A stretch of DNA of 44,209 nucleotides from a virus. A program made the translations under genes and the position numbers. Of the stretch, positions 6,017 through 41,786 are shown piece by piece. The DNA lies in the UHGV virus genome UHGV-0168748. The stretch is one strand, 5' to 3'. The notes below the pieces were generated by a model. It worked only from the letters and a program-made list of their open reading frames with translations. It was not told the DNA's origin and made no database searches. Every line of letters begins with the position of its first letter. Position 1 is the stretch's first letter.

Positions 6017-6385
6017 TTACCTCAGGAGCACAACTTCGCGTTGCAGCTCGTCTTGTGACGGTATGGTGTATACGCCAGACTCGGGGAATGTTAAGTCGCT
6101 TAAAGCGGTATGGAATGTTATACCGTGAACTGCTTCAATTTTCCGCACGAGGGGATACCCCGTAGTTGTAGCCCAGTCATGGTCAACGAACAGTACAGTG
6201 CCGGGTTGTCCAGACCCATCCCAGACACGTAGGTTTACAGTCTTTCCTGAGAAATTAGCAAGTTCTGTTCGTAGTCTGAGTAACACATAACGCGAGAAGG
6301 TTAGCTCAATAACACGCTGAGGTAAAATAAACTCAGGAAACTCAAAAGCAAAACCGTTTGGCGTGTTAATAAAGAAAGCTTGCAT
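6017..6385 (-). CDS. hypothetical protein
   Basis: 122-aa track ORF. Confidence 0.5.
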   Translation of the reverse strand: MQAFFINTPNGFAFEFPEFILPQRVIELTFSRYVLLRLRTELANFSGKTVNLRVWDGSGQPGTVLFVDHDWATTTGYPLVRKIEAVHGITFHTALSDLTFPESGVYTIPSQDELQREVVLLR

Positions 6386-10055: not shown

Positions 10056-10604
10056 TTAAATAGGGCGTTCTAAAAGGTAGTGTTCGACAAGTGTTTCCAA
10101 TTCCCGGAATAAATGCGCAGATTGATTCACCAGCGCTTTGTCTTCGTCGGACTCCGGTTTAAGGAACGCCGATTCATAAGGTTGAATCAACGCTAATAGC
10201 ATACCTAACTTATAAGCGGCGACCTCAGGACTGGACGTCCCAAAATAAGTGTCTAGCCATCGGTTTTCCGCTAAGTCGTTTCGTTTATTTAATGCTTCAG
10301 GTAATGGTAGCCATTCAATTGAACTCCTGTTAATTGCACGCTGATATTCATTGATGAGAAAAGCTAAACGTTGGTAAACAATATCAATGTTATTAATGCG
10401 TAATTCGAGGAAACCACGAAGGCTGGGGCGGTAGGGCGGCTCATTTATGTTTAAAGGCAACGTAAGCAATTGTAAGCCAGTAAACACTCTGACATAAGGG
10501 TTGTGGGTGTTCTTATGGAACTCCTGCTTCAGAGACTCTCTGAGGGCTTTTAAACGGTTATTCTCTAACCGTTGTTTAAAACGAGTTATTATTCCTGTTA
10601 ACAT
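10056..10604 (-). CDS. hypothetical protein
   Basis: 182-aa track ORF with AGGAG RBS. Confidence 0.55.
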   Translation of the reverse strand: MLTGIITRFKQRLENNRLKALRESLKQEFHKNTHNPYVRVFTGLQLLTLPLNINEPPYRPSLRGFLELRINNIDIVYQRLAFLINEYQRAINRSSIEWLPLPEALNKRNDLAENRWLDTYFGTSSPEVAAYKLGMLLALIQPYESAFLKPESDEDKALVNQSAHLFRELETLVEHYLLERPI

Positions 10605-10675
10605 AATTCACTCCTAAAGAATGTCTCACGTAGATAATATCTGTCTGACTTCTTTTTGAAATTGAGGTAGTAAGA

Positions 10676-11140
10676 ATGGCTGACGAAGAAGTGAAATATC
10701 AGGCGTTCGATGGAGATGTAGACGACGAAGAATCGCTTCTCCGCCAAACGCAGCAAGCCCGTGTTCGCATTGTGAATCTTATCTTAGACGATCCGAATGC
10801 ACACAAAGACTTGAAAACGGTAGACCGATTAGGGTCTTTGCTTAACGACGTTGATAAACAAATCATTTCCAAACGTCGTGTTGCCGCCGCACAGAAAAAC
10901 AGCGAAGCTAACCAAGATTTGGCAAACGCACTTAATAGCATCCTCATGCAACGTGGCAATATCAAAATACGTCGTCACGATGAGGAAGTCGAACAAAACC
11001 AGGGGTACCAACCCCCCGTTCCTAACATTCCTAATGTTGAAGTGTCGGAAGGGGAGCTGGCTCCAGTCGGCGAACAAATTGACGTTAAGTCCATTATGAC
11101 GGCGGCGTTTGCGCGTCCTGAGCAGGGCGAGCAAGACTAA
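10676..11140 (+). CDS. hypothetical acidic protein
   Basis: 154-aa ORF with GAGGTAG RBS; divergent from 10056-10604. Confidence 0.5.
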   Translation: MADEEVKYQAFDGDVDDEESLLRQTQQARVRIVNLILDDPNAHKDLKTVDRLGSLLNDVDKQIISKRRVAAAQKNSEANQDLANALNSILMQRGNIKIRRHDEEVEQNQGYQPPVPNIPNVEVSEGELAPVGEQIDVKSIMTAAFARPEQGEQD

Positions 11141-11816
11141 ATAAAGCGGCATCTCGTGGGTCGACACCGACCCACTCTGCCATAAACCGGATATGTTCCT
11201 TAAAGGGGTTAACGCCGTCTTGTTTGATTTGTTCAACCAAATTCCCGGTCAGTTCTGGTGTAAGCATGGCTGGGTGTGTGATAGTAAAGCTCGGAATGGG
11301 CTTTTTCAAGTGTTCAGCATTAAGCTTAATCCACTCGAACCAATCGTACATTATCCAGCAATCCCATGCCAGTGACAATCTCCCTGGTGTGAGGTCTTCT
11401 AACGACCAGGACACTAGTTCGACCTGCACGTTACTGTAGTACATTCGAAACAGATTCAAAAAAGCTTGAAGTTCTTCGCCAGTTAAATCTGTATAAGGCC
11501 AGGTATTGATGGTCAGTGTGGGTTTTTCGATTGGCGAATGCATTTCGATTTCAAGCAACATACACTCGAATTCGTTTTTCATTGTCGCCAACAACTCAGT
11601 AGGTTGCGCATTGACTAACGCACGTTTATCCCGTTTTCGCCACTCCTCTTCCCACTTCTCAAACCCTAACACACCAGCCCACGCTTCTGTATAACGACGA
11701 CGATAAACATCGTAGTCTAGCAGTGCCAAGCTTTCAGGTTTAATAGCCTTTACCCAACCTAAACGCGTGTCGAATAACGTATCAATGTCGATTAAGAAAC
11801 GACGCGATAATCTCAT
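11094..11816 (-). CDS. hypothetical protein
   Basis: 240-aa track ORF; convergent 47-nt overlap with 10676-11140. Confidence 0.5.
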   Translation of the reverse strand: MRLSRRFLIDIDTLFDTRLGWVKAIKPESLALLDYDVYRRRYTEAWAGVLGFEKWEEEWRKRDKRALVNAQPTELLATMKNEFECMLLEIEMHSPIEKPTLTINTWPYTDLTGEELQAFLNLFRMYYSNVQVELVSWSLEDLTPGRLSLAWDCWIMYDWFEWIKLNAEHLKKPIPSFTITHPAMLTPELTGNLVEQIKQDGVNPFKEHIRFMAEWVGVDPRDAALFSLARPAQDAQTPPS

Positions 11817-12481
11817 GACGGATGGCCTATGTTATTTCCGATGTGCATCGCTTTTAGGTACGCTGACCAGGTGCGCGTTGCTTTAGAACTCGTTCGTTCT
11901 GCACCGGGTAAGTCAATACGCCCTTTACCGGTTTGACGTAGAGACTGATAGAAAGCGCGTTGCAGAGCTTCGTTACCACCACGTGCCCACAAGAACTCTT
12001 TCAGTGTCCAGTCGTGGCCATCGGAATACATGATATACGCTTCTGGGAAGGACACCCCTGATGCTTTAGACGGCCCGACAACCTGACCGGAGAGTTTATC
12101 ACGAACTTTGTCGTTTTTCGCCACCGCCATTTTCTTTTCTTGCATCTGTGTCTGACGACGAACAGGCAAGCGTAAGACCAGGTGGGGATAACGTGTACGA
12201 TGATAAACACCCGTTTTCGGTTCCGTTAACCACAAACGTTGTTCCAGGTTCACCCCTAAGAGTTTACACACCTCGATATTGCGCAGGTGGTCAATCTCAA
12301 CTTTACTTCCCACCGGGTTGTAAATAGGTAAACCGTTACGTAGTTGGTTAAACTGTTCGTCGGTCATTCTTGCGAAGGCTTTCTTTGCCGCCTCAGCATT
12401 AATACCCGAGGGGTCTACCAACTTTAGTATTTGTAAGGCGTAGGCTTCCGCCTTTTTACGCCGCGCTGGATCGAGTTTCAT
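11813..12481 (-). CDS. hypothetical protein
   Basis: 222-aa track ORF. Confidence 0.55.
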   Translation of the reverse strand: MKLDPARRKKAEAYALQILKLVDPSGINAEAAKKAFARMTDEQFNQLRNGLPIYNPVGSKVEIDHLRNIEVCKLLGVNLEQRLWLTEPKTGVYHRTRYPHLVLRLPVRRQTQMQEKKMAVAKNDKVRDKLSGQVVGPSKASGVSFPEAYIMYSDGHDWTLKEFLWARGGNEALQRAFYQSLRQTGKGRIDLPGAERTSSKATRTWSAYLKAMHIGNNIGHPS

Positions 12482-17504: not shown

Positions 17505-18047
17505 TTATACTCCTTTAGGTTGTTCGTATTTTGATGACAGGTAGATGAGTTCAGCACGACAAACTTTCTCAACTAACCCGAGTGTCTCGAGGAAAATATC
17601 TCGGATACGGGACATCGTTTCGTTGGTAAGAATATCACTCCAACACGTTGTGTCTATTATATCCGTTAATGAAGGTTGGCGCTGCAATATGGCGACATAC
17701 ACTTCGTCGAGCGTATCCGGGGCATTGTTCTGTAAGTAATGCGCGGCATGTAGAAAGGCTTTCTCAAGAATCAGTTGTATATCCGTATCGGGATCAGTTA
17801 CCTGGACTAAATGTGGGTGTTCCATGACCGCATGGATTTTTCGTTCCAACTGCTCAACAAGGTTGTTCACCATCGCTTCTGAATCCAGGATAGCGATTTC
17901 AGCCCCACCGTGTTCTTCAGAAATCTTATTCTCATGCACAGCAATCGCGTCGTGCAACTCAAGCGCAATTCGACTACGCATCTCACTTAACAGTTTGTTT
18001 AATTTACCCCGTGACTCGCTGAGTGAGAAATCGATAAGTATTTTCAT
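17505..18047 (-). CDS. hypothetical protein
   Basis: 180-aa track ORF. Confidence 0.55.
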   Translation of the reverse strand: MKILIDFSLSESRGKLNKLLSEMRSRIALELHDAIAVHENKISEEHGGAEIAILDSEAMVNNLVEQLERKIHAVMEHPHLVQVTDPDTDIQLILEKAFLHAAHYLQNNAPDTLDEVYVAILQRQPSLTDIIDTTCWSDILTNETMSRIRDIFLETLGLVEKVCRAELIYLSSKYEQPKGV

Positions 18048-18787
18048 TATACGTATTCCTGATAAATTGCCCGGCCCCGATCTTCTCGAATCTGGCAGTA
18101 AGTTACAACAGTACCGTTAGGGATTTGTACGCCGGTGTCTTCAAGGTAAATAACACCTGTAGCTTCGCAGAGATAAAACGACCACAATCGTGAGTCACCA
18201 AGTCGTGCATTCTCGTAGTGACTGAATGGCCAGTAACCGCAGTGAAGCTCAACATAGTCTCCCCGTTCTATCCCGTAAGCAACCATTTCTTTTTCCCATA
18301 ACTTACATTCGGCGTCGTAGGTCGAGTACCAGAATCCAACCAGGTTCTTTGTTTGTTTAACGTTGAGTAAGTCGTTATAAATCGGAGAGAGTGCTTTGTT
18401 GAAGGTTTCTAGCATCTCTGGGGAGAGTAGGTAACTCACGTAATATTCTAACCAGTGACAAATAGCTTCCCAGACGTCTTCGGAAGCGAAGTGTTCGAAC
18501 ACAGCATCATCACAATCGTAGTTATCGTAGATTGCAGAGAGGTCTACTGTAACGTCACGTAGGTCGACAGTTCGGTTAGTGTTAATGGCGTTGATAATTT
18601 CAGCGATAAACTGAGTAAAGATACTTGTGCAGGCGGATTGTGCGGTATAAAAGAACTCTCCTTGAACAGTTGACCATCTTGGGTCCTTCAAACGCTCATT
18701 GAAGTATCGCGGCCAAATTTTATAAAAGATTCCCTCGAACAACGAGGGATTGATGCGTTGTAACTGAGGGACATAAACTTTTAGCAT
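18047..18787 (-). CDS. hypothetical protein
   Basis: 246-aa track ORF. Confidence 0.55.
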   Translation of the reverse strand: MLKVYVPQLQRINPSLFEGIFYKIWPRYFNERLKDPRWSTVQGEFFYTAQSACTSIFTQFIAEIINAINTNRTVDLRDVTVDLSAIYDNYDCDDAVFEHFASEDVWEAICHWLEYYVSYLLSPEMLETFNKALSPIYNDLLNVKQTKNLVGFWYSTYDAECKLWEKEMVAYGIERGDYVELHCGYWPFSHYENARLGDSRLWSFYLCEATGVIYLEDTGVQIPNGTVVTYCQIREDRGRAIYQEYV

Positions 18788-18823
18788 TTTAATAACTCCA
18801 ATGGTGTTACACCTGGATAATAT

Positions 18824-19480
18824 CTATCTAAGAAACTTTTTAGCGAAGTCGAAATCGAGGGCATACTCCGTAACTGTTGCGTCGTACCCAGAATGAATCT
18901 GGTCGGACATTAGAAGGTATTGGTTTAGGTCAGGTGGAAGTATCCACGCATCACCTTGTTTAAATAACGAATAGCGCAAAGGGGAAGGGGTGATTTCTTC
19001 TGGCGCGGAGGTTCTTACTGCGGTCAGGTCATTTACGTTTAATGAAACCAAACGCACAGGATAATTTATCCCTATTTCCGTTAAGCACGTACGACGATCT
19101 AACCAAACGATTTCGCCGGGATAACGGTCGAGTTCCGACCACAGCTTGCAGCAAGCGGTATTAAAGTCCTTTCGTAGCTCTGGTGTTCCTTCTACATATC
19201 CGATACATTCTTCAGTAAGCGGGGCGTGGAGACGTTCAGGATTAACACTACGTATCCGTGCTACTGAGAAATAATCATCCAGTGGATCGCACCCCGCATT
19301 ACGTAAACCTATCACACCCCATAGCGCTTGTAAGGAGAAGCCTAAAGCAAGCTGCTCCAACTCTAGAGTTTCGTCGGAATAAGGGGCGCGAAAGCCCCAT
19401 TTACGATTAGCCGTTTCTAAGAAACGTTGTTGAAGGTACCGAGGGGCTTTTGTCATGACTTCGCTATAAACAACTAGCAT
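18824..19480 (-). CDS. hypothetical protein
   Basis: 218-aa track ORF. Confidence 0.55.
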   Translation of the reverse strand: MLVVYSEVMTKAPRYLQQRFLETANRKWGFRAPYSDETLELEQLALGFSLQALWGVIGLRNAGCDPLDDYFSVARIRSVNPERLHAPLTEECIGYVEGTPELRKDFNTACCKLWSELDRYPGEIVWLDRRTCLTEIGINYPVRLVSLNVNDLTAVRTSAPEEITPSPLRYSLFKQGDAWILPPDLNQYLLMSDQIHSGYDATVTEYALDFDFAKKFLR

Positions 19481-26381: not shown

Positions 26382-26891
26382 TTAGAAGAACGGTTGGTTT
26401 GGAATAACCGCGTATTCCAGAATGAACATGTGTTCAGGGGCGTCAGTTTTACGCCAGACTTTGTGTGTTGCTACGAGTTTTTCCAGAATCGTTAAGAAGC
26501 TACGTTGGCAGTAGGTGTTTTCGCCAAGTAACAGATTCTGAAGTTCTACAGTAGCATCCATATACGCTTGCTTAAAGACCAACCCACGGTTATACTGACC
26601 CGTATAGTTCCAGAGCAACACTTTACCTTCTTCGGTTTCTTTTACCGTTGGCCGTAGACCACAAATCCAGAGCAGTGCTAAGTTTACGTTCCAATCAAAC
26701 TCTTGCTCATTCTCGGGATCATCGCCGAAGGCAGTAGGCAAAGCATCGTAAAATTCGTGCTTCTCAGCGAAATCTTCATCCGATTTAATCTCGTCTTCGA
26801 TACTGCTTCGGACGATAGCGTAAACGTCTTTCGCGGTTAGTTGTGCGGCTTTTGTAATGCCTTTATACCAATCGGTTACAACGATGCTCAA
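26382..26891 (-). CDS. hypothetical protein
   Basis: 169-aa track ORF. Confidence 0.55.
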   Translation of the reverse strand: MSIVVTDWYKGITKAAQLTAKDVYAIVRSSIEDEIKSDEDFAEKHEFYDALPTAFGDDPENEQEFDWNVNLALLWICGLRPTVKETEEGKVLLWNYTGQYNRGLVFKQAYMDATVELQNLLLGENTYCQRSFLTILEKLVATHKVWRKTDAPEHMFILEYAVIPNQPFF

Positions 26892-27613
26892 AGGGCAACT
26901 CCTCTATTGATTGGAAAACTCGTGTTTATCGTATCCCAAATTCTACTGACTTCCGCCAATTGAATCTGACGTGGTGACTTCTTCGCAAACGCAAGCTGAC
27001 GTGGAGCCGAGCCCACAGCAGCAGGTACATCGATTTTCGCACTGTAAAATGCTGCGTCTTTCATAAACCCTGCCATTTCTCGTTGTGCTGCTCGAGATTT
27101 GCTTTTGATTCGTGCGTGTGCACCACTTTCACCCCAGTGGTAAGCTAACGCAACTTCAGCCATGGTGGGCTTGCGTTTGAGTCGTTTAGTTAACCCCTTT
27201 TCAAGATGCTTAATATACGCGGCAGCCAGCAAAACAGCATTACGCGGATTGTACAAATCGGCGTTCTGACTAAGACCTAATTCTTTTCCGTAAAGCTTTA
27301 GCAAATTACGTTTGGTACTCGGAACCATCTGTACCAGGCTGTGTGCTCTTGAGCTTTTATTGTAAGCTTTAGGATCAAAACGCGATTCACGGTAAATCAG
27401 CGTAACCATCAATTTAGGATCAACGCCTTGCTTTCGGGAGATTTCCACAATTAAAGGACTGACCTTTTCGAATCGATGTTGGATTTGTGCAAACTCACGA
27501 TGATGCTTAGATTGTGGCGTTGACGTTGACGCCTGTGCGTTAAACGCGAAAAGTGTTACCAGTAAAAGAAAGAAGATACGAAACATTTTGCTTCTCCAGT
27601 TGGATTTATACAT
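26888..27613 (-). CDS. lytic transglycosylase (SLT domain) with signal peptide
   Basis: Signal-like MFRIFFLLLVTLFAFNAQA; SLT motifs YRESRFDP, SLVQMVP, AAAYI. Confidence 0.6.
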   Translation of the reverse strand: MYKSNWRSKMFRIFFLLLVTLFAFNAQASTSTPQSKHHREFAQIQHRFEKVSPLIVEISRKQGVDPKLMVTLIYRESRFDPKAYNKSSRAHSLVQMVPSTKRNLLKLYGKELGLSQNADLYNPRNAVLLAAAYIKHLEKGLTKRLKRKPTMAEVALAYHWGESGAHARIKSKSRAAQREMAGFMKDAAFYSAKIDVPAAVGSAPRQLAFAKKSPRQIQLAEVSRIWDTINTSFPINRGVAL

Positions 27614-27686
27614 TTCCGTATTCCGTAAGACGAAATGACGGCGCGGACAGCTAATACTCCTTTGTTGTGTGCCCTAATGATAATAT

Positions 27687-28184
27687 CTATTTAAAAGAGT
27701 TTGGAATTAAAGACCGAGCTTCTTGGTACAATGCATCGGGTAGATATAACGTGTGATGTTGTCTCCTTGTTTCAAGTTTGTCGTAAAGCCACAAAAAGAT
27801 TTCTTGTCTTTCCCAAGGACGTAACCAACCATTGGCCATTCCCAGTGGAGGGATAGCAACAGAGGTGTCCAGGTTTTCAACACAATCTGCTAATGCGGTA
27901 ATACCCGCAGTAACATAAGAAACTTGGGACTTTAGACGCCAGTGTGTTTTTGTGGGGAGCAGGATACACTTTTCGTCAGGATAAACGTAGACATTTCCAA
28001 TCCTGATTTCGTTTTCGCGACAACGTTTACGATAATCCTGATAAAGCGTAGGGTAGCGTTCTCGACAGGCTAAAGCAATACCGCGACCCATTGCGCCCAC
28101 GCAGTTAATGGTAACGACCTTATAAGCTTCAGGTGCATTAAAAAGGTCGCCGCCGATCTCAGATTCTTTACGTATCGTTAGCAT
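27687..28184 (-). CDS. TARG1/DarG-like macrodomain protein (predicted ADP-ribose hydrolase)
   Basis: GDLF...NCVGAMGRGIALACRERYP and AIPPLGMANGWL match the TARG1-type GDLF / MGxGIA / IGCGL pattern. Confidence 0.55.
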   Translation of the reverse strand: MLTIRKESEIGGDLFNAPEAYKVVTINCVGAMGRGIALACRERYPTLYQDYRKRCRENEIRIGNVYVYPDEKCILLPTKTHWRLKSQVSYVTAGITALADCVENLDTSVAIPPLGMANGWLRPWERQEIFLWLYDKLETRRQHHTLYLPDALYQEARSLIPNSFK

Positions 28185-28908: not shown

Positions 28909-29352
28909 TTAGAATGATTTGCTAAAATCGACCCACTCACGATCGCGTGAGTAAACCGCTTGATAACCGCGTCGGATGAAATATTCTTTTGCTTCTTTGC
29001 ACTTCGCATACATGCCAACAACGATCTCGCTGAAAGCTTCATCGGCTGCGATTGCTTTAAAAATCTCTTTCATTACGCCACGCTGTCGATAATCCGGCAA
29101 CACATACAGTGAACGTATCTTGAGGGAACCATTACGATTCCGGTAACTGCAATAACCTACTGCCACACCGTCCAGATACACCAGAACTACGCAGTTACCC
29201 TCGATCAGCTGCCGTGCATTTAACTTCGGCACGGCCATTTTGATTTTTAGTAACGTAGCTTGGTGGTCTAAGTAACGGTAGTGTAATTTAAGTAAGTCAC
29301 TTGCTTGTTGCTCACCGACTTTAGAGGATGCGTTCAATAAATAAATTTCCAT
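28909..29352 (-). CDS. GNAT-family N-acetyltransferase
   Basis: GNAT motif A-like YVLPDYRQRGVMKEIFKA; start moved to ATG 29352 with AAGG RBS. Confidence 0.5.
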   Translation of the reverse strand: MEIYLLNASSKVGEQQASDLLKLHYRYLDHQATLLKIKMAVPKLNARQLIEGNCVVLVYLDGVAVGYCSYRNRNGSLKIRSLYVLPDYRQRGVMKEIFKAIAADEAFSEIVVGMYAKCKEAKEYFIRRGYQAVYSRDREWVDFSKSF

Positions 29353-33106: not shown

Positions 33107-33583
33107 TTAGAGCCCTAAGTGCGTGAGTGATAAAATAGGCTGGGATTCACCTTTAATCGTTGCGTAGGAGCGGTACATTTCCGCGTTACTTGAAAAGACT
33201 TCGTTAGCAACGATACATTCACCCGTCTCTAAAGAAAGGAGATAAATGTAGTCGCTCCATACACTTTGTACCAATACCCATTCGAGTGCAGTATCGCTTT
33301 CTCGCGTTGTCCGTAAGTAATGGAAATAAGGACGAATTGCGTCAACGGCTGCATTAAATCGGCGGTGATAAATTCGGGTTAAATCGAACGTCCAAATTGT
33401 TTCCAGGTCGACAGGATGTAATGTACGTACTGTGTCGATGATTGTTGACTGGTCGCCTATACGAGCAGCTTCTGCAATACGTAATAGTTTCCAAGCCACT
33501 GTCAGGTTGTGGCGAATCTGTTCAGGTTTGGCGGACAGGTCATGATGAAATTGTGCTGCTTGGTAGACGTTAGACAGTTGCAT
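33107..33583 (-). CDS. hypothetical protein
   Basis: 158-aa track ORF. Confidence 0.55.
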   Translation of the reverse strand: MQLSNVYQAAQFHHDLSAKPEQIRHNLTVAWKLLRIAEAARIGDQSTIIDTVRTLHPVDLETIWTFDLTRIYHRRFNAAVDAIRPYFHYLRTTRESDTALEWVLVQSVWSDYIYLLSLETGECIVANEVFSSNAEMYRSYATIKGESQPILSLTHLGL

Positions 33584-35433: not shown

Positions 35434-35904
35434 TTATTGTTCGTATTCGGTGTTCCAGCAAGATTCGAGGAAGTTACCGTCCATCACTTTCTTAACGTTT
35501 TTGGCTGATGGGTTAAAGGTAGCAACCTTTTTCTGGTCGAGGTATAAGTCAAACTCAGTTGCTGTAGAGATTGCTTTTACAAAACTAACCCAAGTATTGT
35601 CGGTATTACGTGTGCCGTCAGGAACTACACCCCAGAACTCTTCACCATCGATAACGAAACTAATGTCGTTATCTTCCGAGTTGGCCACCACATTACCATC
35701 TTTAGAGATAAAGATCTTGTGTGGTAAAATGTTGTTTTCATCTGGATTACCGGTACAGCTAATGGTAATACCCCATCCACCGTTATCGATACCATACTCG
35801 GTTTCACCCATTGCAAAGCCACTACCCCACATGTTCGGAATGGCCTGTGCAGCAGTGGCGCTTACAGTTAAAACGATAGCTAAGAAGATGTTAGACAGTT
35901 TCAT
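35434..35904 (-). CDS. small secreted protein, paralogue of 35942-36397
   Basis: Signal peptide; conserved blocks TISCTGN, SFVIDGEEF, TWVSFVKAI shared with the neighbour. Confidence 0.55.
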   Translation of the reverse strand: MKLSNIFLAIVLTVSATAAQAIPNMWGSGFAMGETEYGIDNGGWGITISCTGNPDENNILPHKIFISKDGNVVANSEDNDISFVIDGEEFWGVVPDGTRNTDNTWVSFVKAISTATEFDLYLDQKKVATFNPSAKNVKKVMDGNFLESCWNTEYEQ

Positions 35905-35941
35905 GGTTATATTCCTTTTAGTTTAAAAATTAAGTTATTTA

Positions 35942-36397
35942 TCAAGGACGGCTATGTCCACAGTTCTTAAAGAAAGTTTCGGGCAGACGCTCACCATCTA
36001 CAATAAAGTTAGCGGCTTCGTTACCGTTGATAGCCACACCGAAGCTTTTTGCATTAGCGATAGCATTAGCGAAGGCAACCCAAGCTTTTTCTGCTTTGTC
36101 GCTGCCGTCAATAGTGGGAATGATATAGTTTTTGCCGTTTACGACAATACTCATTTCGTTGTCTTCGGCATTAGTTGAACCGACCGGTTCACCGTAATAC
36201 CAAACCATGCGACCGTAAAACTTACGATTAGCCGTTGCGGTATCGCAGTTGATAGACAAGCTGTTCCCATTTTCGTCTTCGATTTCGTAAACAGCATTTC
36301 CCGGACTTTGAAGTCCTTCCCAGCTTCCGATTGCGGCGTAAGCGTTATTGAGACCGAAAGTTAAAAGGGTTACTAAGAATGCGATAAAAGTTTTCAT
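35942..36397 (-). CDS. small secreted protein, paralogue of 35434-35904
   Basis: Signal peptide; conserved blocks SINCDTA, SIVVNGKNY, AWVAFANAI. Confidence 0.55.
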   Translation of the reverse strand: MKTFIAFLVTLLTFGLNNAYAAIGSWEGLQSPGNAVYEIEDENGNSLSINCDTATANRKFYGRMVWYYGEPVGSTNAEDNEMSIVVNGKNYIIPTIDGSDKAEKAWVAFANAIANAKSFGVAINGNEAANFIVDGERLPETFFKNCGHSRP

Positions 36398-36446
36398 TGA
36401 AATACTCCTTAAAGGTTAACAGGTTAAAAGAGTTAATCGTAACTCT

Positions 36447-36470
36447 CACCTAAGTAATATATATCTGAAA
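36447..36470. promoter_or_regulatory. conserved 24-bp intergenic element, copy 1
   Basis: CACCTAAGTAATATATATCTGAAA; 23/24 identical to 40771-40794; flanked by hairpin AGAGTTA-ATCG-TAACTCT. Confidence 0.45.
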
Positions 36471-36489
36471 TTATTTCTAATCGTACTGA

Positions 36490-36520
36490 ACAAAAAAGAA
36501 AGTGGGAGCAATGCTCCCAC
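36490..36520 (-). terminator. rho-independent terminator
   Basis: GTGGGAG-CAATG-CTCCCAC, U-run on minus strand. Confidence 0.6.
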
Positions 36521-36525
36521 TGCGT

Positions 36526-39681: not shown

Positions 39682-40434
39682 TTACGCGTGTTTTAACAAT
39701 AACAAGCGGTTATTGGTAATTTCAGCAGCGCCCCAGCCTCTAACAGTAGCGATGCTAAGTATATCGACTTCATCACGGTATTTCAACATCGGATCGTTGG
39801 GATTGATTTCGATCACGTGAGTATTTCTGGAAATCGTTTCTACTTCTGGGATTTCTTTTACTATATCCGAAGCAATTAACTCAAGAACGTACAGCTCCTC
39901 GAAGCATTTAAAGTAGATATGGACGCCGTATAACTTATCGTTATCGTCCCTTAACGGGTAGAGATTAAAACCAGGACCCAGTAACGTTAGTTCCGCATTG
40001 TAAGGTACTTCAAATTCACGATGAATTAATGCAATTCCGTGGCGGAATAAAGGGAAGTGGGCAAATACAGACATTAATGCCCACTGTTCTGTTATAATGG
40101 TCGGGTCATGGCTAAGCGGTCCAATGTTAGCCAGATTTTCGATAGCGTAGCGTACTGAATTAAAATCGCTTTCGGTAATGATACTGTAAATAAGCATCAC
40201 ACCAGTTTCGCTGTTAAGAATACTGAATACGCTATTAGCATAAGCGGTAATCCGATATTTATCCTCTGGTTCGTCAGTAGGAACGTTTTCAGGCTTAACC
40301 GTTTTGATTTCGACTAATTTAGCAGGGTATTTTGAACCTACTAAATCTTCAACGATAGGAGAGGCGATCTCTAAATAGGTCTTAGCAAAGAGTTCATCTA
40401 AGTATTGGTTAACAAAAACTTCTGCTGTCAGCAT
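39682..40434 (-). CDS. member D of paralogous family with conserved C-terminal tail
   Basis: Ends ...IATVRGWGAAEITNNRLLLLKHA. Confidence 0.55.
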   Translation of the reverse strand: MLTAEVFVNQYLDELFAKTYLEIASPIVEDLVGSKYPAKLVEIKTVKPENVPTDEPEDKYRITAYANSVFSILNSETGVMLIYSIITESDFNSVRYAIENLANIGPLSHDPTIITEQWALMSVFAHFPLFRHGIALIHREFEVPYNAELTLLGPGFNLYPLRDDNDKLYGVHIYFKCFEELYVLELIASDIVKEIPEVETISRNTHVIEINPNDPMLKYRDEVDILSIATVRGWGAAEITNNRLLLLKHA

Positions 40435-40610: not shown

Positions 40611-40688
40611 TTACCGAGGAATAGCTGGGTTGTAGCGTTTGAACTGTTCGATGACTTCGTCCAATCCGCCTTTCTTCTCAGTAGACAT
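40611..40688 (-). CDS. possible 25-aa small ORF, not in ORF track
   Basis: Hand-translated MSTEKKGGLDEVIEQFKRYNPAIPR with AGGAAACAGACC RBS. Confidence 0.25.
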   Translation of the reverse strand: MSTEKKGGLDEVIEQFKRYNPAIPR

Positions 40689-40770
40689 TGGTCTGTTTCC
40701 TAATAACGTGGTAACTCCGTTTCGAAAGAAACGTGTCCGTAGGGACTGAACTCGCACTTCAGTCCCTATT

Positions 40771-40794
40771 CACCTAAGTAAAATATATCTGAAA
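40771..40794. promoter_or_regulatory. conserved 24-bp intergenic element, copy 2
   Basis: CACCTAAGTAAAATATATCTGAAA; adjacent perfect 10-bp hairpin AGGGACTGAA-CTCGCAC-TTCAGTCCCT. Confidence 0.45.
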
Positions 40795-40820
40795 CCAATT
40801 CCGATCTAAGGAACGTCCCG

Positions 40821-41786
40821 ATGGAGAAATCCAGTGTTGATTTTTTCTCAATTGGTATCGTCGCGGAAGACAAACCCCGTGGTACAGATCGGGTAAAAGT
40901 GATACCAATTGAAACCAACTTTGCTAACCCTACTGTGGTGCAATCTGTTTCTTCAGCAACTGAAAAGACGCATGAAACGTCTGGTGCAACAGATAACCTA
41001 ACCATTAAGACGGGTAACACGATAACAGCAAAGTGGTGGAAGTTTAACTCCAACCGAATTAATTCCCCTGACGTTAAACGAGAAGACTACGTTATCTTGT
41101 TACGTTTGGGGAAAACCGATATTTATTTTTGGATTGATTTGAATTTCGCTAACGTTAAGCGATTAGAAGATGCGGTTTATGCGTGGTCGGCTGACCCCGA
41201 AAACCAAATGGCGGATGACCTGTCCAATGCGTATGTGTTGAATGTCTCGACGATTGACAAACATATCACGCTAAGAACATGTATGGTGAATGGCGAGAAA
41301 GCGGCGTGGTTATTCCAGTTTGACAACGCAAACGGATCGTGGCAATGCGTTGACCATAAAGGGAACAAGTATTACATTAACTCGGTCGAAGATGATCTCG
41401 GGTTTGAGAATGCGATGCTATCAAAAGTGAACATCAACAAAGAAGATGCGTTCATTTATTCAAAGCGTTCTATTAACCTGGAAACAAAAACGATTAATGA
41501 GAAATGCGAAGTTCGCAATACAGAAGCATCGAAATCCGTTACCTTTAAAACACAAACCTGGTTAACGGAAGCGGGGAGTTCGACCACCTTTAAAACGCCG
41601 AACTTTAAACAAGAAGGGAATGAAGCACAATTCACCGGTAATCTTGAAGTGGCTAAAAACTTCAAGTACGGCGGTACTGGGGAAGGTGTGGGTATCTTTA
41701 CGGTTAAAGATGCGGTTATTGCGGGCATTACTTTCAGCGTACACATCCACGACGGTGTACACGGTCCTACTTCGGGTCCACGGTAA
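40821..41786 (+). CDS. hypothetical protein with His-rich C-terminal tip
   Basis: 321 aa; ends FSVHIHDGVHGPTSGPR; tail fibre or spike tip is speculation. Confidence 0.55.
   Translation: MEKSSVDFFSIGIVAEDKPRGTDRVKVIPIETNFANPTVVQSVSSATEKTHETSGATDNLTIKTGNTITAKWWKFNSNRINSPDVKREDYVILLRLGKTDIYFWIDLNFANVKRLEDAVYAWSADPENQMADDLSNAYVLNVSTIDKHITLRTCMVNGEKAAWLFQFDNANGSWQCVDHKGNKYYINSVEDDLGFENAMLSKVNINKEDAFIYSKRSINLETKTINEKCEVRNTEASKSVTFKTQTWLTEAGSSTTFKTPNFKQEGNEAQFTGNLEVAKNFKYGGTGEGVGIFTVKDAVIAGITFSVHIHDGVHGPTSGPR

Follow-up and report, generated by a model that had tools for sequence, protein, structure and literature searches.

The 44,209-nt virus sequence UHGV-0168748 (the window, meaning the whole stretch analysed) carries a 24-bp element at two intergenic sites, each beside a hairpin, and the question raised by these sites is what reads the element and what the hairpin adds to it. 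The two copies, CACCTAAGTAATATATATCTGAAA at 36447–36470 (site 1) and CACCTAAGTAAAATATATCTGAAA at 40771–40794 (site 2), are 23/24 identical, and their positions, letters and intergenic location are exactly as an earlier note on this DNA had reported. They are the only sites found when the window is searched with up to three mismatches (none in 100 dinucleotide-preserving shuffles), and their likeness is longer than 24 bp, reaching 84% over 37 nt (36446–36482 against 40770–40806). Read on the minus strand, the element is TTTCAGATATAT(A/T)TTACTTAGGTG, also given as TTTCAGATATAT(A/T)TTACTTAGGTGA. The note had suggested a phage-specific promoter or a regulator binding site, with a structured leader. 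We conclude, with a probability that we put at about 80%, that the element is an early promoter read by an injected virion RNA polymerase (RNAP), and that the stem-loop at the 5' end of its transcripts most likely shields early mRNAs with long leaders. The suggestion of a promoter with a structured leader is thus borne out by a match to the published early consensus of phiKZ-like phages, by co-oriented recurrences and by a hairpin that is conserved with covariation. Regulator binding may be an extra role of the element; nothing demands it.

Match to the early promoters of phiKZ-like phages

The minus-strand sequence TTTCAGATATATATTACTTAGGTGA fits published early-promoter consensus sequences almost base for base. 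These are TATATTAC for the predicted early promoters of phiKZ (PMC7058600, Table 2), TTAWTAVAA_HYWTTTRARR_BTATATTACDWHDGTG for 201phi2-1 and TBYAWWWWWTTTCARRYAKATATTATYWAAGTGWA for N1M2, with TTTCARRYAKATATTATYWAAGTGWA as the motif of N1M2 and OBP (PMC7058600). According to a review, every RNAP-encoding jumbo phage has an AT-rich motif of ~10 nt centred near position −10 of its early start sites; wherever transcripts have been profiled this motif is the early promoter, and its recognition must be by the virion RNAP (vRNAP) (PMC7598289), an attribution also made in PMC13282480. Differential RNA sequencing (dRNA-seq) in phiKZ (PMC8244752) and ONT-cappable-seq in 201phi2-1 (PMC11512511) agree with the early-promoter motif, and the phiKZ early promoters have a 'T-rich motif upstream of −19' (PMC8244752).

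At the sequence level the element has everything that characterises this class, namely the core, the −20 and −30 elements, and the copy number and orientation. On the minus strand a GATTAnAAA region near −30 is followed by TTTCA near −20, by TATAT(A/T)TTAC at about −14 to −7 and by TTAGGTG, which ends at the start site. The AT-rich core of ~8–10 nt is TATATATTAC at site 1, TATATTTTAC at site 2 and GATATTATC at three weaker sites, and an information-content profile of 25 aligned sites shows that the TTTCA box and the GATTAnAAA region are conserved, as they are in the 201phi2-1 and N1M2 consensus sequences. The early promoters of phiKZ, 201phi2-1, OBP, N1M2 and EL are built alike, with a core of TATATTAC or ATATTAY, a TTTCA-like box ~10 bp upstream and an A/T-rich −30 region. 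The likeness extends to the G that stands 7 nt after the core and to GTG at the start site, the latter as in 201phi2-1. In the first 50 kb of phiKZ this G is invariant in the early promoters, exactly 7 nt past TATATTAC (TATATTAC-N6-G), and the spacing in the window, TATATTAC-TTAGGT-G, is the same. From this common spacing we infer that transcription starts at the last G of GGTG, at 36447 and 40771 on the minus strand, to within ±2 nt.

The full promoter at site 1, GATTAGAAATAA-TTTCAGATATATATTACTTAGGTG, occupies 36447–36482 on the minus strand (about −36 to +1), contains the 24-mer and has the top score in the window with a position weight matrix (PWM). Directly upstream, at 36491–36521 on the same strand, a terminator scan finds the intrinsic terminator of the preceding operon, a 9-bp GC-rich stem with a T-run; this order of terminator and then promoter is common to most related copies. 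At site 2 the promoter, TTTCAGATATATTTTACTTAGGTG (TATTTTAC variant), lies at 40771–40806 on the minus strand, matches both the PWM and the consensus, and is 94% identical to its ortholog in the IMG/VR contig L020. It sits in a divergent intergenic region, opposite a baseplate assembly gene on the plus strand (40821–41786).

The identity of the phage is consistent with such a promoter. Its proteins follow the same order, inverted, as those of 158.5–203.8 kb of Salmonella phage SPN3US; its SbcC-like protein is ~70% identical to those of the Erwinia phages Asesino, Stratton and phiEaH2 and 59% identical to that of SPN3US; and at 11813–12481 on the minus strand it encodes a beta-like subunit of a multisubunit RNAP (phrog_3233, E 1.9e-93; 82% identity to the SPN3US 'RNA polymerase beta subunit'). 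Judged from these comparisons, the window is a fragment of a phiKZ-like (Chimalliviridae-type), RNAP-encoding jumbo phage, and the polymerase gene puts it with those jumbo phages that encode an RNAP and use promoters of this class. One beta-like subunit gene lies within the window, and close relatives carry full sets. Nucleotide matches to known phages are confined to the element and its flanks (window ~36428–36500), which are 78–88% identical to intergenic DNA at 4–6 places per genome in SPN3US-like Salmonella phages and Erwinia jumbo phages.

The earlier note had called for a search for further copies and named their absence as a result that would count against it; copies in fact recur in the window and, genome-wide, in its relatives. 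A PWM built from both a strong and a weaker tier of sites finds five in the window, the strong ones at 40771 and 36447 and weaker ones, with the core GATATTATC, at 27673, 18810 and 10627. All five are on the minus strand, intergenic or at gene edges, and co-oriented with the genes downstream. The strong tier is a cassette of terminator, promoter, 5' hairpin and long leader, whereas the three weaker copies in the window have short leaders and no hairpin. In the complete SPN3US genome 7 sites are strong, with the predicted +1 at 114005, 56313, 165706, 94258, 223296, 65432 and 4446, and ~14 are weaker. Essentially all lie on the gene-sense strand and several are directly upstream of RNAP-subunit genes (at 29014 and near 17704, for example, of RNAP beta genes), and four of the window sites have SPN3US counterparts at orthologous positions. 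This distribution resembles that of phiKZ-like early promoters, which number a few tens per genome and stand upstream of small-gene operons and RNAP-subunit genes.

More widely, the strong motif occurs 4–6 times per genome in 66 jumbo-phage records, and two scans of IMG/VR yielded 54 stretches from ~15 jumbo-phage contigs, from which three (L004, L007, L036) were excluded as coding-region or context-free chance matches. Orthologs of both strong window sites are present in contig L020, at a distance of 4.29 kb from each other. Prokaryotic genomes, 596 Gb in all, contained just 2 matches, consistent with chance and without the flanking architecture, and a BLAST search with the site 2 region alone returned only a 35-nt match in Serratia phage PCH45.

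Two features set these sites apart from the phiKZ-like set. They belong to a clade with Enterobacterales hosts (SPN3US and Erwinia-phage relatives), in which the promoters are only predicted, and, unlike phiKZ, this clade has two sequence tiers in one genome, the strong tier being fused to a 5' stem-loop and a leader of ~50 nt. Since the promoter class itself is already known, the gain is incremental; what appears not to have been described before, a modest refinement, is that in this clade the promoter is fused to a covarying 5' stem-loop and to a leader of fixed length.

The stem-loop at the predicted 5' end and the leader behind it

At both copies a hairpin lies directly on the low-coordinate side of the element, as the earlier note had said. 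The site 1 stem-loop, GAGAGUUA-cgau-UAACUCUU, spans 36428–36447 on the minus strand (+1 to +20) and is predicted by folding to have 8 bp, including one G.U pair, closed by the loop CGAU. Its folding energy is −6.5 kcal/mol (z-score −4.1; 0/200 shuffles equally good), which is significant yet modest, and the note's word 'stable' therefore overstates it. The hairpin predicted for site 2, at 40740–40768 on the minus strand (+4 to +32), has 11 bp in its stem and 7 nt in its loop, with −17.3 kcal/mol and a z-score of −5.2. The order that the note read on the minus strand, of element, hairpin, ribosome-binding site and gene, holds at site 1, with AAGGAG at 36405–36410 and ATG at 36397. It holds in part at site 2, where the leader that continues from the hairpin is longer (83 nt) and the open reading frame (ORF) that comes first has just 25 codons.

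The hairpin is real and under selection. The 49 unique strong copies share a constant layout of GC-rich terminator with T-run, A/T-rich tract, promoter, stem-loop, leader, Shine-Dalgarno sequence (SD) and ATG. A first hairpin criterion, of minimum free energy (MFE) folding with at least 5 pairs, was too lax, as about half of the shuffles passed it, and it was replaced by a strict test for a perfect stem of at least 6 bp that starts at +1 to +3 and encloses a loop of 3–11 nt. Thirty-three of the 49 copies pass, compared with 4.4 in composition-matched shuffles (maximum 11) and 3.9 expected from random genomic 40-mers starting with GAG (binomial p ~3e-25); when the search is begun at +13 instead, none of the 49 does. 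At least nine distinct stem sequences occur, and every one of them has a 3' arm that pairs with it (GAGAGTTA, GAGCGTTA, GAGCATTGA, GAGATTGC, GAGATTAC, GAACTTGC, GATAGA, GAGGAT and GAGAGT).

Covariation was measured on 63 hits aligned with a covariance model (CM) that was built from 11 copies of the same geometry. Paired cells make up 91.1% of this alignment, compared with 74.0% in shuffles (0/500), changes on both sides of the stem occur in 57 cells against 21.0, and the covariation score is 0.319, compared with 0.109 in shuffles (0/500) and 0.01–0.05 for slid partners. A per-position table of MFE pairs was not used as evidence, being circular, since MFE folding can yield none but canonical pairs. 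The stems often contain G.U pairs (34/251), and in 34 of 47 copies the fold of the sense strand is better than that of the antisense; both observations suggest that the structure forms in RNA, on the strand that is transcribed.

Further comparison of site 2 with its ortholog in L020 (hairpin at approximately 6146–6174) shows one compensatory change, from A-T to G-C. The 7-nt loop in L020 is the exact reverse complement of that in the window (GTGCGAG compared with CTCGCAC), as if the entire hairpin had been turned round, for which intrastrand template switching within a quasi-palindrome is one conceivable route; such a flip implies that what matters is the stem, not the letters of the loop.

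Hairpin and leader length are linked. The hairpin accompanies long leaders, of 44–83 nt, whereas the weaker promoters with leaders of 21–36 nt do without it, and the few weaker promoters that have long leaders have it too. This association agrees with protection of those 5' ends that ribosomes are unable to cover, and the structure is, in our analysis, most likely an RNA-level 5'-terminal stem-loop that protects long-leader early mRNAs. In E. coli, base pairing at the 5' terminus protects mRNAs, and in enterobacteria a 5'-terminal stem-loop with 0–3 unpaired nucleotides is an arrangement known to block decay that depends on the 5' end, RppH and RNase E (Emory, Bouvet and Belasco 1992; Bouvet and Belasco 1992; both cited in PMC3997798). 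On the mechanism that we propose, the injected vRNAP would recognise the −30, −20 and −10 elements and initiate at the last G of GGTG, at 36447 and 40771. The first ~20–32 nt of the RNA would fold into the stem-loop, leaving 0–3 unpaired 5' nucleotides. Next would come a leader, ~50 nt long in general and 83 nt at site 2, and after it an SD and the first gene. The stem-loop would block 5'-end-dependent decay of the long-leader mRNA by the host enzymes RppH and RNase E, with the outcome of a long-lived, highly expressed early mRNA straight after injection. Promoters with short leaders may dispense with the hairpin, as an initiating ribosome would be close to the 5' end.

The leaders of the strong copies have a median length of 50 nt to the SD/ATG, and two short boxes recur in them, for example at 36398–36427 in the window and in the related loci L002, L021, L035 and L037. 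CGACYNT is present in 17/49, against 2.7% of random 50-mers, and TTAAYC in 27/49, against 3.8%, often as TTAACCTAAAGGAG. The TTAAYC box presumably resembles the 'epsilon' translational enhancer of T7 gene 10 (TTAACTTTA).

Weighing the readings

Several observations count against this interpretation or limit its reach. The start site is extrapolated from phiKZ and 201phi2-1 and could be ~2 nt off, our literature search found no transcriptome or promoter paper for the SPN3US clade and hence no measured transcription start, timing or polymerase dependence, and the beta-like subunit encoded in the window may belong to either a virion or a non-virion enzyme. For the hairpin, 16 of the 49 copies fail the strict stem test and many stems are weak, at −3.5 to −8 kcal/mol. 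The CM alignment leans towards the modelled structure, and the independent events are fewer than the cell counts suggest because the copies are paralogous or orthologous. Compensatory changes could also be the product of a single event of template switching within a quasi-palindrome, as the flipped loop of L020 suggests. Finally, only 2 of 7 phiKZ early promoters, a small sample from the first 50 kb of that genome, have a clear hairpin (mean z-score −0.5). Since phiKZ is mostly without it, the hairpin is best regarded as a trait of the SPN3US/Erwinia-phage clade and not as a requirement of the vRNAP.

One of the two phiKZ promoters with a hairpin (−8.8 kcal/mol, z-score −3.2) is that upstream of PHIKZ054, which encodes the nuclear shell protein (45568–45647 in phiKZ); its leader, at 66 nt, is the longest of the seven. 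The phiKZ and 201phi2-1 transcription literature searched makes no mention of a hairpin (PMC8244752, PMC11512511; the original promoter paper, Ceyssens 2014, lay outside that search).

Could the element be something other than a vRNAP promoter? One possibility is that it is mainly an operator, bound as DNA by a phage regulator such as an early-gene repressor, and not a polymerase recognition site. The core is partly dyad-symmetric (AGATA-n5-TATCT in the weaker tier, AG-ATATATAT-..CT in the strong tier), for which reason several sites score on the opposite strand too, and one strong cassette of SPN3US precedes a gene annotated as a helix-turn-helix DNA-binding protein. The phiKZ version, AACAGTATATTAC, however, has no dyad, and the motif matches a consensus that derives from mapped early start sites in phiKZ and 201phi2-1 (PMC7058600, PMC8244752, PMC11512511). 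Its strict orientation to genes, its asymmetric flanks (TTTCA upstream, GGTG and GAG downstream) and its tightly constrained distance to the SD/ATG (median 50 nt) also argue for a promoter, and we regard an operator as very improbable. A host sigma-70 early promoter, with TATATT as the −10 and GATTA/TTGATT 17 bp upstream as the −35 sequence, is hardly credible. The earlier note saw no resemblance to sigma-70, whose promoters have TTGACA-like −35 and TATAAT-like −10 hexamers 16–18 bp apart, and the consensus scan likewise calls no site at 36447–36482 or 40771–40806, where the −35 candidates match at 2–3 of 6 positions. Some related copies (for example L012 and L039) do read TTGATT-N17-TATATT, and T4-type phages have strong sigma-70 early promoters in similar cassettes (PMC2839356). 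The best-conserved bases here, however (the C at −7, TTAGGTG and TTTCA), have no role in sigma-70 recognition, the upstream TTA..AA element belongs to the early motif of 201phi2-1 (PMC7058600), and phiKZ-type infection is independent of host RNAP, with the injected DNA held inside the early phage infection (EPI) vesicle (PMC7598289, PMC13282480).

With the element taken as a vRNAP promoter, the hairpin might still do something other than stabilise mRNA, acting as a weak terminator or attenuator of upstream read-through, as a premature-termination device that yields a short 5' RNA, or at the DNA level as a cruciform or promoter-escape element. Its 3' arm usually ends in CTT followed by 1–3 more T, the stem-loops of the PeSL (promoter-early stem-loop) cassettes of T4-type phages terminate transcription (PMC2839356), eight short RNAs arise in 201phi2-1 by premature termination in 5' untranslated regions (PMC11512511), and one SPN3US cassette, at 165706, continues into a genuine terminator-like hairpin. 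We nevertheless consider such roles unlikely. The stems are short and AT-rich, their T-runs are just 2–5 nt, and the scan that called the true upstream terminator, at 36501–36521, does not call them, so that a rho-independent terminator, which has a GC-rich stem and then at least 5 T in a row, was rejected; a strong GC-rich terminator already lies upstream in most copies, the G.U pairs favour sense RNA, and anchoring of the stem at +1 to +3 is what 5'-end protection needs and is irrelevant to a terminator. An additional role, compatible with the promoter reading, is conceivable but doubtful, namely that the strong cassette of ~100 bp serves as a PeSL-like recombination module that shuffles small early genes. 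Copies are alike over ~100 bp, at 78–88% between phages whose genes escape megablast, they flank fast-evolving genes without annotated function, and the genes next to both strong cassettes have no SPN3US homologs; the PeSL cassettes are a precedent (PMC2839356, PMC4122927). This evidence rests, however, on a single synteny comparison, many cassettes keep conserved orthologous positions, and the conservation could be purely functional. Quite unlikely, finally, is a joint reading in which the strong tier would be a distinct 'immediate-early' module of enterobacterial nucleus-forming jumbo phages, the stem-loop and the CGACYNT/TTAAYC boxes forming a recognition tag, more than a passive stabiliser, that could mark vRNAP transcripts of the EPI vesicle for export, for preferential translation or for protection from host RNases or RNA-targeting defences, and the cassette being as well a PeSL-like recombination site by which early genes move between phages.

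Phage N4 also injects a virion RNAP, and its early promoters are associated with a small hairpin. In N4 this hairpin forms in the DNA, upstream of the start site, and is read by a single-subunit enzyme. That of the window is found downstream of +1, differs between copies in its sequence and in the size of its loop, is better formed by the sense strand of the RNA and goes with a multisubunit enzyme. An N4-type hairpin promoter was rejected accordingly, as the hairpin starts at +1 to +4, on the wrong side of +1 relative to the core, and the polymerase genes are of the multisubunit, beta-like kind. RNase III sites were also dismissed, the stems (6–12 bp) being too short.

There is also a likeness to the PeSL cassettes of T4-type phages. 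These are composite modules of ~100 bp, repeated many times between genes, and the genes downstream of them are variable and without annotated function (PMC2839356, PMC4122927). The order of parts is shared, from an upstream stop or terminator through an AT-rich tract, a strong early promoter plus a stem-loop with G.U pairs to the SD and start codon. The PeSL promoters, in contrast, are of the sigma-70 type and served by host RNAP, with the stem-loop within or around the promoter as a terminator, whereas the window cassette has a promoter of the phage-RNAP type, a separate terminator upstream and a stem-loop that is downstream of +1 and not terminator-like; on these grounds it was not classed as a PeSL cassette. 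The ompA and papA leaders of E. coli (cited in PMC3997798) are similar in having a hairpin with very few unpaired 5' nucleotides, a long leader and a host with RNase E and RppH. The stems of the window type differ from theirs in being shorter and more AT-rich, and in their tie to a phage-polymerase promoter.

The promoter assignment would define five early transcription units in a fragment of an uncharacterised jumbo phage, and offers a testable promoter model, with a predicted +1, for the SPN3US/Erwinia-phage clade. The cassette flags candidate immediate-early genes, which are likely to act in host takeover or anti-defence, and may be of use in the engineering of these phages, as a small expression part that does not need host RNAP. 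It could also be a simple system for studying how early mRNAs made by an injected polymerase are handled and stabilised; a 2026 review (PMC13282480) counts the way in which mRNAs get out of the EPI vesicle and of the phage nucleus among the open questions.

Genes served and neighbouring features

The genes behind the strong cassettes encode small proteins without annotated function, mostly lacking SPN3US homologs, which is typical early-gene content; two genes after site 1 and two after site 2 have no such homolog, and the genes that flank them are syntenic. At site 1 the leader totals 50 nt, the part beyond the hairpin (36398–36427, minus strand) containing two TTAACC boxes and the SD. It leads into a minus-strand ORF at 35942–36397, which encodes 151 residues (phrog_3429) with an N-terminus that looks, from its sequence, hydrophobic and signal-peptide-like, and which has no SPN3US homolog. 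A tandem paralog, also phrog_3429, follows at 35434–35904. The ribosome-binding sites and N-terminal regions of several small genes are repeated (35434–36397 and 33107–33583), which suggests local duplication of early genes.

The SPN3US ortholog of site 1, at 165706–165782 (L032 15706–15782, also in L055), has the 5' hairpin followed immediately by a strong terminator-like hairpin, GGCTACC-ttcg-GGTAGCC with a T-run, before gp086. This double hairpin could be an attenuator, could produce an RNA of ~45 nt, or could be the deletion scar of two genes that are present in the window.

At site 2 the remainder of the leader (40689–40739, minus strand) contains a possible second hairpin, CGTTTC-tttc-GAAACG at 40718–40733, and the SD AGGA at 40698–40701; the leader as a whole folds with −26.6 kcal/mol (z-score −3.45). 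The first ORF after it is a putative one of 25 codons, MSTEKKGGLDEVIEQFKRYNPAIPR, at 40611–40688 on the minus strand, which is also present in L020 at 94% identity, too little divergence to judge whether it is coding. A gap of ~175 nt separates it from the next ORF (39682–40434). The region of the leader and the small ORF could encode a leader peptide, contain an upstream ORF or give rise to a regulatory RNA of small size. Searches of Rfam with the whole window and three related loci gave no match at the gathering score, and a transfer RNA (tRNA) scan of the long-leader loci gave none.

An even longer leader, of ~105 nt, follows one strong cassette of phiEaH2-type phages (L008 213–340, and L028), with extra hairpins before the SD/ATG. 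A non-coding RNA was considered for it and rejected, an SD and ATG being present at ~+105 and tRNA and Rfam searches giving no match.

The three weaker promoters of the window are all predicted on the minus strand. The first, TTTTAAATAGATATTATCATTAGG at 27673–27708, scores 18.8, lies outside the training set, has its SPN3US ortholog at 174973 and stands upstream of a transglycosylase-like gene (26888–27613). The other two have 23-nt leaders: TTCTTAGATAGATATTATCCAGGTG at 18810–18845, upstream of the gene at 18047–18787 (SPN3US ortholog at 184063), and GTCAGACAGATATTATCTACGTG at 10627–10662, upstream of the gene at 10056–10604 (SPN3US ortholog at 191621). The last of these lies in a divergent intergenic region (10605–10675), and its partly palindromic core, CAGACAGATATTATCTACGTG, also scores on the plus strand (10647, score 13.6), facing the gene at 10676–11140. 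The same two-strand arrangement is seen in SPN3US at 191601/191621, and the region may be a bidirectional early promoter.

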